Shown one piece after another: positions 15,961 through 50,168 of a stretch of 50,168 bases of DNA. The stretch is from Escherichia phage vB_EcoS-DELF2. How positions within the stretch are numbered: position 1 is the stretch's first letter; every line of letters starts with the position of its first letter. Below the pieces are notes generated by a model. It was not told the origin of the DNA and made no database searches. It saw nothing but the letters and a program-made list of their open reading frames with translations. The position numbers and the translations under genes are program-made. The stretch lies in sequence record NC_049832.1. One strand, written 5' to 3'.

Positions 15961-16536
15961 TTACTTCTCCTCATCCAGTAAATGTGAGCGGAATTGCTCG
16001 ACCAGCTTATTGAGATCGGATACCGAGATATTGCTACCTTCAAAATCCCTCAAATCGATTCTGAACGCCTCAACCTTCGCATTGAACACGTCGGCTATGC
16101 TCTTTCGCTTCCTACCTCTCTTGCCATGTTTAGCTTCGCCTATGGCCTTCTCTGCTTCCTCGCCTTCGAGTTCGGTTATGAATATCGTCACCCCGTCAAC
16201 CTGATCGCGGTTGATTCGCACAGATACGGCCTTATTATGCACCTTGAGCATGTGGCGCTTGATGATATTGGACACATACGACGCGGTGAGTCGTTCGAGC
16301 AACCAGGCTGATCGAGATGTGTACTCGTTAACGACTGCCTCATCAATCTGGTCATCGTTAAGTTCCACGCCATGAGTAGCCTTTACAATCTCGGCCTGCT
16401 CATTGACGTACACTTCAACCATTTGCTTTCCGGTGATTGAGAACTCATTCCCTGATTGGTGGATTTCAATCGCCTTTCGAATATAGTCCGGCAGGTTGAG
16501 TTCAAATTCTGTCACTTCTTTAAGCTGAGTTTTCAC
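15961..16536 (-). CDS. hypothetical protein (first gene of leftward early block)
   Basis: 191 aa ORF adjacent to divergent intergenic region. Confidence 0.45.
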   Translation of the reverse strand: MKTQLKEVTEFELNLPDYIRKAIEIHQSGNEFSITGKQMVEVYVNEQAEIVKATHGVELNDDQIDEAVVNEYTSRSAWLLERLTASYVSNIIKRHMLKVHNKAVSVRINRDQVDGVTIFITELEGEEAEKAIGEAKHGKRGRKRKSIADVFNAKVEAFRIDLRDFEGSNISVSDLNKLVEQFRSHLLDEEK

Positions 16537-17230
16537 TTGTCTATACCTCGTTGTCTATGGGTGTAACTTTCAACTTCGAAAAACATGTTACAGCTACAAA
16601 GTCAGGAGCGTCAATGTCTATAGCTGCATTTTTTATTTTTGTAACCAGTGCAACCGATGCAACCGACTTTTTCTATAAAAGTAAGCACATCTATTTATGC
16701 GCGCGGAATGGTATGTTTTTTATACTATGCATCACGAAATATATGCCACCCTCAAAAAATGCGGTTGCACCTATTACGCCGATTACATACCAATATATAA
16801 TATAATAAATAAATAAATATATATTATCTATCTTATTATTATATATAGATATTTTATTATCTATAGGCCTATCGATTCTCGGGCCACTTTGTAACACCCC
16901 TGATGGTATACAACTATTACGACAATTACAACTACCGCATAGACGAATAGCACGTTTTGCTAAAAATGGAGATTACCACCAGGCGAACTGGGTAACACTA
17001 AATCCTCCCTCTCACAATCATTGCAATCTAAGCAACAAATCAACCGACTGTTGCACACCATGCAATAATCACGTTTCATCATTCGCAATCAATCACAATC
17101 AAAATTATTCCAACTATTCCAGCATTGATGTAATAATGAGCAATTATTGGAATAGCATTTTTTGCTAACGACTGGACCAGGTTGGCAGGGTATAGTTCTG
17201 GCCATCAACCAATCAGAAGAGGAAGCAGCA
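16537..17230. repeat. AT-rich divergent intergenic region with iteron-like repeats and two motif copies lacking or displaced from -10
   Basis: TTGTCTAT x2, TGTAAC/GTTACA, ATATTATCTATC, inverted TATCTAT/ATAGATA; motif copies at about 16947 and 17152. Confidence 0.5.
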
Positions 17231-17416
17231 ATGAAATTAATTTGGTCACTATTCGACGGTTCAGGACTTGCTGGTCATGAACTGGCAAGGCAAGGTCACA
17301 AGGTGATGTGCTTCAACTTTGACGGAGCAGATCACGGAGATTACGCAAAGTACAACGCCAGGGTTGAGCATCCTAACATTGAGTATGTGAACGTCTTTAT
17401 TGATGAGAAGTTCTAA
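17231..17416 (+). CDS. C5-cytosine DNA methyltransferase-like, N-terminal fragment (motif I FDGSG) ending at in-frame TAA
   Basis: ATG at 17231 preceded by CAACCAATCAGAAGAGGAAG leader; TAA at 17414..17416 in same frame as downstream ORF. Confidence 0.35.
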   Translation: MKLIWSLFDGSGLAGHELARQGHKVMCFNFDGADHGDYAKYNARVEHPNIEYVNVFIDEKF

Positions 17417-17434
17417 CTTGATGCTATCGCGGGT

Positions 17435-17935
17435 GTGTATGGCAAGCCTGATTTCATTATGGCATTTCCTCCATGCACTGACCTGGCTGTTAGTGGCGCT
17501 GCTCACTTAGCAAGAAAGCGTGAGCGAGATCCGTTATTCCAGGAGAAGGCTGTTGCCACCGCCAGGATTGCCGCGAATATTGGCGACGCCCTGGGAGTGA
17601 CTTACATCATTGAGAATCCTGTGAGCGTCCTGTCATCTGCCTGGCGAAAACCGAATCACTCATTCAACCCCTGGGAGTATGGCGGCTATCTTCCTGAGAA
17701 TGACGCACACACCTGGTTCCCTATGTATATTGCGCCGCGCGATGCTTATCAGAAGAAAACTTGTCTTTGGACCTCGGACGACTTTGTCATGCCGGAGAGA
17801 AAACCTGTAAACCTGCCTGACGGGTACTCTGCGCAACACAGCAAGCTTGGCGGCAAGTCGGCAAAGACGAAGCTGATACGATCCCTGTCGCCGCGTGGAT
17901 TTTTCAAAGCGATCGCAAATAGCACTTTTTGTTAA
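17435..17935 (+). CDS. C5-cytosine DNA methyltransferase-like, C-terminal part (FPPC motif IV, ENP motif VI)
   Basis: Same frame as 17231..17416; catalytic Cys motif PPCTD; no target-recognition domain obvious. Confidence 0.45.
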   Translation: MYGKPDFIMAFPPCTDLAVSGAAHLARKRERDPLFQEKAVATARIAANIGDALGVTYIIENPVSVLSSAWRKPNHSFNPWEYGGYLPENDAHTWFPMYIAPRDAYQKKTCLWTSDDFVMPERKPVNLPDGYSAQHSKLGGKSAKTKLIRSLSPRGFFKAIANSTFC

Positions 17936-17937
17936 AA
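17919..17937 (+). promoter_or_regulatory. palindrome motif copy (ATAGCACTTTTTGTTAAAA) with TGgCATAAT -10 19 nt downstream
   Basis: Motif encodes the last residues NSTFC-stop of the methyltransferase ORF. Confidence 0.55.
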
Positions 17938-17995
17938 CTAGCTCGGTGCGATTTGGCATAATTACCTCATCGAAACGAGATTGAGGAAAAACAAA

Positions 17996-18181
17996 ATGGC
18001 ACGTCGCATCACTAAAGACCTTAAAGTTCTGAACAAAGAAAACGTAGTTAAAATCCTGGTTATTTGGGGATACAGCGAAGAATCAGCAAAGCAGAAGGTA
18101 GAGGCGGGTTACGACCTGGCTGTCAAGGCGATGCCTAACGACGATGCAAAAGGCATTGCAAACTATGTAGCATTCTTTTAA
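17996..18181 (+). CDS. hypothetical small protein
   Basis: GAGGAAAAA RBS before ATG 17996. Confidence 0.45.
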   Translation: MARRITKDLKVLNKENVVKILVIWGYSEESAKQKVEAGYDLAVKAMPNDDAKGIANYVAFF

Positions 18182-18196
18182 TTAACAGGCTAACAA

Positions 18197-18382
18197 ATGA
18201 AAACGAAATTAGTGCATAAATCAGAAATCAAGATCGGTGATACTGTGATTCACAACGGAGAACTTAAAACTGTTGGTAAGGAGTCGATAACCAAAGATGA
18301 ATTTATGGGTCTGTTGTTGTTCGGCGACTCATATCGCCTGGGTTATAAAATGGTTGAGCTTGTTGAAGATGTAAAATTCTAA
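18197..18382 (+). CDS. hypothetical small protein
   Basis: 61 aa ORF. Confidence 0.4.
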   Translation: MKTKLVHKSEIKIGDTVIHNGELKTVGKESITKDEFMGLLLFGDSYRLGYKMVELVEDVKF

Positions 18383-18401
18383 ATAGCACTTTTTGTTAAA
18401 C
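18383..18401 (+). promoter_or_regulatory. palindrome motif copy with TATAGT -10 and hairpin CCCCGA-N6-TCGGGG in spacer
   Basis: Read directly. Confidence 0.5.
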
Positions 18402-18457
18402 GCCCCGAAGTGAATCGGGGTATAGTGAACACATCAACCAATCAGGAGAATCACCAG

Positions 18458-18688
18458 GTGGCAATTAAACACACCGGATTAAAGAAAGCAATCCAGCGCG
18501 CCAATGATGAGGGATTCATCGTCTACCGCACACATTACGGTCACATGGGCGGGATTAAAGATCATCACACTAAGGTCGAGCTTGTCGACCTTTTGGATGA
18601 TTACGATACATTCCAGTATATCGCTACGTCTGACATAGAGGCGCAAGTGAAATACATCAACGACACAATTGATAGTTTCAGAGGGTAA
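18458..18688 (+). CDS. hypothetical protein (paralog of 18691..19071)
   Basis: AGGAG RBS then GTG; shares KKAIQRANDEGF-like N-terminus with next gene. Confidence 0.4.
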   Translation: MAIKHTGLKKAIQRANDEGFIVYRTHYGHMGGIKDHHTKVELVDLLDDYDTFQYIATSDIEAQVKYINDTIDSFRG

Positions 18689-18690
18689 TT

Positions 18691-19071
18691 ATGACAGATT
18701 CAAAACTTCAGGCAGCAATTGACCGCGCAAATGAGAAAGGTTTCACTGTTGAAATTTGCAATCGCTTGGTGGGCGGGATAATCCACCCCAGCAACCGAGT
18801 TGTTATCACTCAGCGCGATACAGGGATCAGTATCACGGATATATTCACCATTAAAGAACATCAGAGCATGATTTCTTACATCAATCGACATGTCGGATCG
18901 GTTGAGTTCGGGAGGCTGGATGGTGACGAGAAGGAGGCTATCATTGACAACCTTCTCGAAGAGGTCAGTCTCGCATTTGAAGAACGACCGGATAACGGAA
19001 CGACACGTTGGGATTGCGATAAGCTGGACGCAATAAACCGCATCCGTGAAATCCTGGAGGAAAAATTATGA
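18691..19071 (+). CDS. hypothetical protein (paralog of 18458..18688)
   Basis: QAAIDRANEKGF N-terminal motif. Confidence 0.45.
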   Translation: MTDSKLQAAIDRANEKGFTVEICNRLVGGIIHPSNRVVITQRDTGISITDIFTIKEHQSMISYINRHVGSVEFGRLDGDEKEAIIDNLLEEVSLAFEERPDNGTTRWDCDKLDAINRIREILEEKL

Positions 19072-19099
19072 TCGTATATATCTATACTGGAGGCATTGC

Positions 19100-20079: not shown

Positions 20080-20293
20080 TTAATGGAACAAGATAATTTC
20101 TGGACTCGTTATTTTGCAGCGCTTGATGACGGGCTTAGTGCCGAGTGGTGCATCAAATGTCGCATATAAAGAAATAACACTTGATGAGGCTCTTGGTGAT
20201 ATGGATATGGATACTGAAAGCGAATACGATCATAACTTTGAGATGCCCGGCGATGATATTGATGATAATGACGACGATTGCATTCCCTGGTAA

Positions 20294-26428: not shown

Positions 26429-26670
26429 ACGATTGTATCAGCTTTAAGTTCTTCCACGTCTTTCTGTATGATTGAAGGCCAATTCTCTATGTATTCATTT
26501 TTTATCTCATCGAAAGACATATCAAGAGAACTAGTGAACTCCCACAGATCGCAACCAATAACATCCTGAGTCAATCCGTTTCGCTCCATAATTTCGCAGC
26601 AGGTAGCTCGATAAAGCAGCCATAAACCTTGATCAGTTAACTTAACCGGAATCATTTTCTCGTTCATCAT
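26419..26670 (-). CDS. hypothetical protein
   Basis: Start overlaps Dam stop. Confidence 0.4.
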   Translation of the reverse strand: MMNEKMIPVKLTDQGLWLLYRATCCEIMERNGLTQDVIGCDLWEFTSSLDMSFDEIKNEYIENWPSIIQKDVEELKADTIVQH

Positions 26671-27380
26671 ACTTTCCTCACTTTTGCGCGCTTGTTTTTC
26701 ACCGAAGGGCAAATGCTTGTTATTGGGATATAGTGAGTTTGCTGCGTCTCACCCTCTTTAAGTTTGCGCATAATGAAAATTACCGAACCTTTGTTATTGC
26801 CGTCAACCGCCTTTCCAGTTTCACCGGATATGAAAGCCAGGCGACCAGATCGGGCGTACTCGTTACCGTCGATATCTTCAGTCAAGTCAGCTTCAATCCA
26901 GATAATCTCAGCCGCGTTCTGTCTCGCCTCAGTAAACCACGCTGTGGAATTATCGGCAGGCAACAGAATATCAATCTGATTGTTGTGCTCCATTTGCTCG
27001 ATCGCCTTCTTGACGAATATATCAGGTCGACTATAAGGAGGATTTAACCAAACGTGCTTATTCTTTCCCCACCAACGTTTTAAGCAGTTTGTTTCCTGAG
27101 AGTAAAACTTCTCGCAAACTTTATTTTCTTCGCTTGCCGCAGCGTCGAGATCATATTTCCCATAACGACCCTCAAGGTATGCAATAACCTCGCGCGGAGT
27201 TGACCATAAATCACGAACAGCGTCAGGGGTATTTGTCCCCTTGTATCGACGCCCTGAAATCTCTTTGCAGGTTGGCGTTTTCAATGCCTGATAATAACCG
27301 CCTGATGCTATTGCTTCGCGAGTGAATGAGCAACCAGTTTCTGCAAAGTCGATAGTTTCGATATCATTAAAGTCTTTCAT
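26667..27380 (-). CDS. dam: DNA N6-adenine methyltransferase (Dam-like)
   Basis: NPPY catalytic motif (WLNPPYSRPD). Confidence 0.75.
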   Translation of the reverse strand: MKDFNDIETIDFAETGCSFTREAIASGGYYQALKTPTCKEISGRRYKGTNTPDAVRDLWSTPREVIAYLEGRYGKYDLDAAASEENKVCEKFYSQETNCLKRWWGKNKHVWLNPPYSRPDIFVKKAIEQMEHNNQIDILLPADNSTAWFTEARQNAAEIIWIEADLTEDIDGNEYARSGRLAFISGETGKAVDGNNKGSVIFIMRKLKEGETQQTHYIPITSICPSVKNKRAKVRKV

Positions 27381-49825: not shown

Positions 49826-50168
49826 TTACACGCCAGTGATTAAGACAATAGTCATCGGACGATAAATTGTAAGGCCAGTACACTTGGAGGTGCAAGGCAC
49901 TTTAAAGTGAAGGTCTTTCGGCTGCGCTGGCAGCATGTTAAATGCTTCCGGGATCTCGATGGACATATTCATCGGATTTTTTTCGTACACCAGTACGCCT
50001 TTAGTACCCGCACCGTCGATATCTTCAAGCTCTGCGATAGAGTCGATTTCGATACCAGCATTCTGAGACTTGAAATAGTCCAGGTAAGACATGGTAGTTT
50101 CAGGCATACGGATCGCCAGAACCATAAGCATGGACGGCGGGATCAGAATGTTTGTTGCACGATGCTGA
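49826..50168 (-). CDS. major capsid protein 3' portion in end copy (continues at window start; 38-aa longer C-terminus than left copy)
   Basis: Identical to residues of 3..848 except RK to LM; reads through where left copy has TGA. Confidence 0.5.
   Translation of the reverse strand, partial: QHRATNILIPPSMLMVLAIRMPETTMSYLDYFKSQNAGIEIDSIAELEDIDGAGTKGVLVYEKNPMNMSIEIPEAFNMLPAQPKDLHFKVPCTSKCTGLTIYRPMTIVLITGV
49938..50168. repeat. right copy of terminal direct repeat
   Basis: Matches about 1..231 with 3 substitutions plus divergent first 4 nt. Confidence 0.85.

Follow-up and report, generated by a model that had tools for sequence, protein, structure and literature searches.

The window considered here is the complete T1-like genome of Escherichia phage vB_EcoS-DELF2 (NC_049832.1, 50,168 nt; DELF2 below), a Tunavirus of the Drexlerviridae that came from a piglet (PMC12218588). 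On its plus strand, an ATG at 17231 opened an ORF of 61 codons, which was closed by a TAA at 17414-17416 (codon 62). Past this TAA the same frame stayed open until a second TAA at 17933-17935, giving 235 codons with both stops counted. The 61-codon piece reads MKLIWSLFDGSG...IDEKF, and the segments ...FIMAFPPCTDL...IIENPVS... were encountered later in the frame. Motif I of C5 cytosine methyltransferases (FDGSG) occupied codons 8-12 (17252-17266). Motif IV (FPPC, with the catalytic Pro-Cys) occupied codons 79-82 (17465-17476), 3' of the premature stop in DELF2, and motif VI (ENP) codons 128-130 (17612-17620). An earlier note made from the sequence had described two ORFs sharing one frame and parted by the TAA at 17414..17416, with FDGSG in the upstream piece and FPPC plus ENP in the downstream one; the reading frame and these codon positions confirmed both descriptions. 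The downstream piece was listed among the ORFs of the window with GTG 17435 as its start and a length of 166 aa. An exact-sequence look-up equated this ORF (17435-17935) with the annotated protein BBU41804.1 (166 aa), its upstream neighbour BBU41803.1 being 61 aa long; both pieces were already annotated as separate CDSs in the public DELF2 record. The features of the locus, together with the second methyltransferase gene of the genome, were the following.

17219..17223, plus strand: Shine-Dalgarno sequence GAGGA, 7 nt 5' of the dcm start, kept in relatives with a DELF2-type upstream leader.
17231..17416, plus strand: N-terminal remnant of dcm, 61 codons and the premature stop, carrying motif I (BBU41803.1/YP_009902344.1).
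17414..17416, plus strand: premature ochre stop TAA at codon 62, where 16 out of 16 aligned relatives displayed GAA or GAG (Glu).
17417..17419, plus strand: codon 63, CTT (Leu), CGT (Arg) in relatives; it holds the second G>T unique to DELF2, at 17418, 4 nt from the first.
17417..17935, plus strand: remaining dcm frame, codons 63-234 and the stop, holding FPPC, ENP, K175/K176 (17753-17758) and the C-terminal RSLSPRG (17879-17899).
26670..27380, minus strand: gene of a Dam-type N6-adenine methyltransferase, 237 aa, full-length, free of stops and 97.9 % identical to the Dam of phage IME167.

The uninterrupted coding sequence expected of a functional member was not found in the dcm gene of DELF2, owing to the TAA at codon 62, and its codons 63-234 are now untranslated, or at best weakly reinitiated. 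A promoter and terminator scan of 16500-18200 uncovered nothing above shuffle expectation, and no promoter is therefore claimed. In DELF2, dcm was the first gene after an intergenic region of ~700 nt. The locus 5' of dcm appeared as a mosaic hot spot: several relatives (Chapo, IME167, Sfin-3, pSf-2, Sfin-2 and phiD2-2) displayed one or two additional short ORFs of 144-213 nt directly 5' of dcm, overlapping its start by 4 nt.

The Dam gene is the other methyltransferase gene of DELF2 and takes no part in the dcm defect. It had been placed at 26667..27380 and called intact; its integrity was borne out by a full-length match, and its position was adjusted to 26670-27380 on the minus strand. Elsewhere in the genome, the two ends (5-231 and 49942-50168) repeated each other with 224 out of 227 nt identical, which resembles the untrimmed overlap of a circular assembly. 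The gene of the major head protein was split across these ends, and the three end mismatches suggest a lower quality there. At 20083-20290 (plus strand), an orthologue of the 69-aa IME167 protein AWD90943.1 displayed a 1-nt insertion near 20154, which left an ORF of 28 aa and the rest in the +1 frame.

By its sequence, the gene falls into a large phage family of C5 cytosine DNA methyltransferases, which are compact at ~234 aa. This family comprised more than 4,600 clusters at 90 % identity, almost all of 225-250 aa, and 937 clusters at the 50 % level; 1,520 phage records held a match to it. In an alignment of 34 family sequences, G10, S11 and G12, P80, C82, the triplet E128 N129 P130, K175 and the C-terminal RSL..RG were invariant. 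The protein repaired at codon 62 matched PHROG 757 ('DNA methyltransferase') at 3e-83. Neither the repaired protein nor either fragment matched any Pfam (PF00145 included) or NCBIfam profile at E<=1, and the family profile retrieved nothing from PDB sequences at E<=10; a precomputed PF00145 match was present in a few homologues. With the curated profile searches empty, the family assignment rests on PHROG 757, on the motifs and the predicted fold, and on homology with Dcm of phages K42 and KarlJaspers. The proposed HMM search against methyltransferase profiles was thus productive for PHROG 757 and empty for Pfam, NCBIfam and PDB. The predicted fold was that of a class I methyltransferase and best matched C5 cytosine methyltransferases, with DNMT3A/B on top.

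The product had also been considered short for a C5 methyltransferase and to show no obvious target-recognition domain (TRD). Only ~60 residues (roughly 140-205) occupied the place of the TRD (motifs VIII-IX), where the model was confident. DNMT3A/B, the closest structural relatives, also have a small TRD. A length of ~234 aa is nevertheless the family norm and not a defect of this copy. Within the family, a segment at ~195-205, possibly involved in target recognition, displayed two alternative forms, GYSxQHxK and DNPGWAK. The Dcm of E. coli itself is about twice the size of the phage dcm product. A truncated protein with a role other than methylation, one of the four options left side by side in the earlier note, need not be invoked, since ~234 aa is normal for the family and one of its members has published 5mC activity (bioRxiv 10.1101/2023.08.16.553469); relatives displayed no conservation of such a truncated form.

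This member is the 711-bp dcm of phage K42 (Drexlerviridae, KarlJaspers/Bas06 strain) studied by Wang et al., who assigned C82 as catalytic and E128, K175 and K176 as substrate-binding residues (bioRxiv 10.1101/2023.08.16.553469). K42 Dcm raised 5mC in the msDNA of retron Ec86, as measured by LC-MS, and triggered the retron; a CCTGG site in the stem-loop of this msDNA was needed for defence, and expression of Dcm was toxic only with Ec86 present (same reference). Mutations disrupting dcm were present in all four escaper phages: two were altered in the RBS, one had a deletion of 2.2 kb and one a 1-bp frameshift (same reference). The triggering of Ec86 by Dcm was restated as accepted in a later paper (PMC12916289). 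In BLASTP, the repaired DELF2 protein was 55 % identical to KarlJaspers/Bas06 Dcm (E 2e-87, residues 3-228), and C82, E128, K175 and K176 bore the same numbers in both. Given this full-length identity and the four shared residues, the DELF2 gene belongs to the characterised K42 Dcm family.

The orthologous dcm locus was aligned for DELF2 and 16 Tunavirus relatives (17 genomes). Codons 62-63 were GAA/GAG-CGT (Glu-Arg) in all 16 relatives and TAA-CTT in DELF2 only, a difference accounted for by G>T transversions at two positions, 17414 and 17418. Ten of these relatives displayed an uninterrupted ORF of 705 bp (234 aa), and the other six were broken elsewhere, none of them at codon 62. Since no relative carried the codon-62 stop and ten possessed a single ORF, the two pieces represent one broken gene and not two. 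Whether the stop was conserved among related phages had been singled out as a point to check, and orthologues forming naturally two conserved genes as the finding that would contradict a broken gene; the stop turned out to be unique to DELF2 among the 17 aligned genomes, and no split at codon 62 was encountered in the 16 relatives. The nonsense-mutated pseudogene, which had been listed as one option without being chosen, was in this way supported by the Glu codon in every relative and the single ORF in ten. Nearest database records were 94-95 % identical to DELF2, and the copy of LeonhardEuler/Bas13 is labelled 'Dcm-like C5 cytosine methyltransferase'. The spectrum of substitutions was locally odd: at least five of the eight substitutions unique to DELF2 in dcm were G>T or C>A (17414, 17418, 17620, 17711 and 17751), a type accounting for 17.6 % genome-wide (binomial p ~0.006).

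A scan for the same allele (GAGAAGTTCTAACNTGAYGC) yielded no match in IMG/VR and JGI metagenomes. The lone GTDB match to GAGAAGTTCTAACNTGAYGC, in a Bryobacter MAG, was a chance match devoid of homology and was discarded. Among Logan assemblies, near-identical T1-like contigs of ~47 kb displayed different dcm truncations, namely a 61-aa product ending at codon 62, a 181-aa product and C-terminal calls of 112 aa (P0136, P0125, P0145 and P0123). A further 158-aa 'fragment' (P0004) lay on a contig of 1.2 kb and was set aside as uninformative.

Disruption of dcm was not restricted to DELF2. The following clear nulls were encountered in Tunavirus genomes.

ADB-2: dcm with -1 nt near nt 358.
LHE71: dcm with +2 nt near nt 272.
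IME18 (host BL21(DE3)): dcm with -1 nt near nt 580.
phiD2-2: dcm with +1 nt near nt 539.
SA30RD: dcm C27*.
vB_SsoS_008: dcm with several frameshifts.
FCWL1 (host BL21(DE3) pLysS): dcm truncated at codon 182.
DELF2: dcm E62*.

At least eight of ~41 distinct Tunavirus genomes thus carried independent clear nulls. As the initial sample was skewed to oddly annotated records, the less biased count was drawn from a tblastn list of ~40 distinct Tunavirus records combined with sequence checks; eight is a lower bound, because unfetched records that appeared as one tblastn piece could hide nonsense codons. JMPW2 and SH2 displayed late truncations. Independent missense changes of the PPC motif were found in copies with an intact ORF, i.e. 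P80H in Eco_BIFF (FHPC), P81S in SA32RD (FPSC) and P81Q in ISF001 (FPQC), and these three may be catalytically dead behind their intact ORFs. No counterpart of 17231-19088 (dcm and four small genes) was present at this locus in phage T1, the search having covered T1 outside 6001-43999. DELF2 16947-17065 matched the T1 record at its left end and 17067-17209 at its right end, after which T1 passed straight into ST1; the termini of T1, physical or of the record, therefore map to ~17066. Intact Tunavirus copies of dcm were under strong purifying selection (dN/dS 0.05 over 45 pairs). Nulls were found in two of three phages on BL21 hosts and in six of 38 elsewhere, a difference that was not significant (p=0.09), and IME167 has an intact dcm even though its isolation host, BL21(DE3), possesses Ec86 natively.

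Altogether, the locus most probably represents a single gene, the phage dcm, whose inactivation is due to a genuine nonsense change of Glu62 to ochre (GAA>TAA at 17414). As the sequence directly implies, ribosomes starting at ATG 17231 would release a peptide of 61 residues with only the SAM-binding motif I region. Cys82 (PPC), Glu128 (ENP) and the C-terminal DNA-binding part would not be made, and without these catalytic and DNA-binding parts the phage would lack Dcm activity. In related phages, the intact enzyme appears to be retained by purifying selection and presumably protects phage DNA from restriction. The same enzyme, if the Tunavirus type behaves like the one studied, would be the activating signal for retron Ec86/Eco1 through methylation of its msDNA. 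As Dcm triggers the retron, null alleles would be advantageous or tolerated on some hosts and might arise repeatedly, and the DELF2 allele could be a natural counterpart of the retron escapers selected in the laboratory. That retron escape caused the DELF2 stop is what we infer, and it is kept conditional because the enzyme studied is only 55 % identical, IME167 retained an intact dcm on BL21(DE3) and the BL21 association reached only p=0.09.

Tentatively, the stop can be read as one case among several in which T1-like phages, wild and laboratory ones alike, repeatedly lost dcm under selection; the enzyme would be an anti-restriction device that is destroyed where hosts sense its activity, through retron Eco1/Ec86 or another methylation sensor. 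Recurrent loss despite purifying selection is expected of a gene that helps the phage on some hosts and harms it on others; for the harm, retron Ec86 is the published case. A neutral origin is likewise conceivable without being probable: the null would be real, with dcm dispensable during isolation and propagation and decaying by drift, and no retron or methylation-sensing role would be involved. The hosts of the disrupted phages were indeed mixed (K-12 derivatives, wild E. coli, BL21 and a Shigella sonnei isolate), and the retention of dcm by IME167 on BL21(DE3) points in the same direction. The BASEL study found methyltransferase content to be unlinked to restriction sensitivity in Drexlerviridae, a missing link that also favours neutrality. 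Against drift, the dN/dS of 0.05 among intact copies shows that dcm matters in nature, and at least eight nulls, three PPC substitutions and the absence in T1 are many for one gene of 705 bp. Just one other gene of ~66 was broken in DELF2, and a direct fitness cost has been published, namely Ec86 triggering and toxicity on expression (bioRxiv 10.1101/2023.08.16.553469).

A sequencing or assembly error, with GAA as the true codon at 17414-17416 and a normal 234-aa Dcm made, seems improbable. The deposited sequence does retain an end overlap of 227 nt with three mismatches (nt 5-231 repeating 49942-50168), a second small gene (20083-20290) is frameshifted relative to IME167, and a single base change is all that the codon-62 stop needs. 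Consensus substitution errors are rare, however, and two unique G>T changes lay here 4 nt apart. Further DELF2-unique replacements affected conserved dcm residues (F93L, P161T and P174Q), P161 being invariant and F93 at least 90 % conserved across the family. Elsewhere in the genome, 55 further genes could be compared without gaps between DELF2 and IME167, SH6 and ISF002. Their DELF2-specific changes amounted to 349 synonymous versus 95 non-synonymous (21 % non-synonymous), the same proportion as in these three relatives, and dcm was the sole gene with an in-frame stop among ~66 shared genes. Independent null alleles are common in relatives, as listed above. Another public assembly (Logan) also displayed a 61-aa product with the same end codon in a slightly different sequence background (P0136, its codon-62 end being compared at the protein level), followed by a downstream 158-aa call (P0125). 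In dcm itself, three synonymous versus four to five non-synonymous changes were specific to DELF2 (Fisher p=0.044 relative to the remaining genes, on only ~8 substitutions), an excess of non-synonymous changes that fits decay after inactivation.

A functional split enzyme, in which translation would restart at GTG 17435 or ATG 17459 and the 61-aa and ~160-aa fragments would reassemble, is very unlikely. GTG 17435 lies just 19 nt past the stop, where some termination-reinitiation is conceivable, and both pieces are annotated as CDSs in the public record. For some C5 methyltransferases such complementation between fragments is known, and M.AquI naturally consists of two subunits. Yet neither GTG 17435 nor ATG 17459 displayed a Shine-Dalgarno sequence at a usable distance, and the stretch after the stop did not differ from that of intact relatives, showing that no support for a restart has evolved there; reinitiation at GTG 17435, another of the four options, was abandoned on these grounds. 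Two conserved ORFs split at codon 62 were found in none of the 16 aligned relatives. In the predicted structure, the break falls within the Rossmann-like core, in a helix (59-66) that is flanked by strands 50-54 and 75-78, and not at a domain boundary, and the replacements at invariant residues downstream also argue against retained function. Readthrough or suppression of the stop (in an ochre suppressor host or programmed), by which the full-length enzyme would still be made, is scarcely credible: apart from a frame otherwise open to the normal stop nothing speaks for it. A stop unique to DELF2 among 17 aligned genomes cannot be a recoding site that relatives conserve, the sequence 3' of it is that of intact relatives and holds no dedicated readthrough signal, and the extra replacements at invariant residues suggest lost function. 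In E. coli, no stop codon terminates more efficiently than UAA, and bacteria seldom use programmed readthrough.

Taking dcm as a gene inactivated by nonsense mutation, the two 'DNA methyltransferase' CDSs of the public record ought to be annotated as a single pseudogene, and the phage is best regarded as Dcm-negative. No methylation encoded by the phage would then shield the 101 CCWGG sites of its genome. Provided that the Tunavirus enzyme acts as K42 Dcm does, DELF2 would also not set off retron Ec86, which bears on the prediction of host range and on the choice of phages for therapy. The data suggest that dcm status varies much among otherwise near-identical T1-like phages; scoring this one gene could be an easy way to predict from a genome whether the phage is sensitive to retron Eco1. 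Should the reading as selected loss be true, public genomes would hold a natural record of the trade-off between methyltransferase and retron, so far shown with laboratory escapers only. As a feature, this is an ordinary pseudogene, most likely genuine, whose value is modest: it adds one to the many knock-outs that a retron-triggering gene has independently suffered in nature, and extends published biology.

Compared with canonical C5 methyltransferases (M.HhaI, M.HaeIII and the catalytic domain of DNMT3A/3B; Pfam PF00145), the DELF2 protein is compact, being ~100 residues shorter than M.HhaI, with only ~60 residues where the TRD sits. M.AquI resembles DELF2 in that its methyltransferase motifs are spread over two consecutive ORFs. 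Its subunits, however, are conserved, separately translated and split in a variable region, whereas DELF2 displays a lineage-specific stop in the catalytic core, without a restart signal and without a counterpart in the aligned relatives. Intact Tunavirus orthologues (ISF002, SH6, Shfl1 and LeonhardEuler/Bas13) occupy the same genome position with 705 bp and a DNA identity of 88-95 %; they display Glu62-Arg63 in place of the stop-Leu of DELF2 and are free of its F93L, P161T and P174Q. K42/KarlJaspers Dcm (236 aa versus 234 aa in DELF2) is likewise a compact, one-domain protein encoded in a Drexlerviridae early-gene region, KarlJaspers belonging to Hanrivervirus and DELF2 to Tunavirus. At residues ~195-205, DELF2 displays GYSAQHSK and K42/KarlJaspers DNPGWAK (KarlJaspers gene L020, 15088-15798), a difference that might alter the target specificity of the Tunavirus form (CCWGG, retron triggering). 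The dcm knock-outs of the K42 laboratory escapers lead functionally to the same outcome as E62* in DELF2, whose allele is natural and not laboratory-selected.
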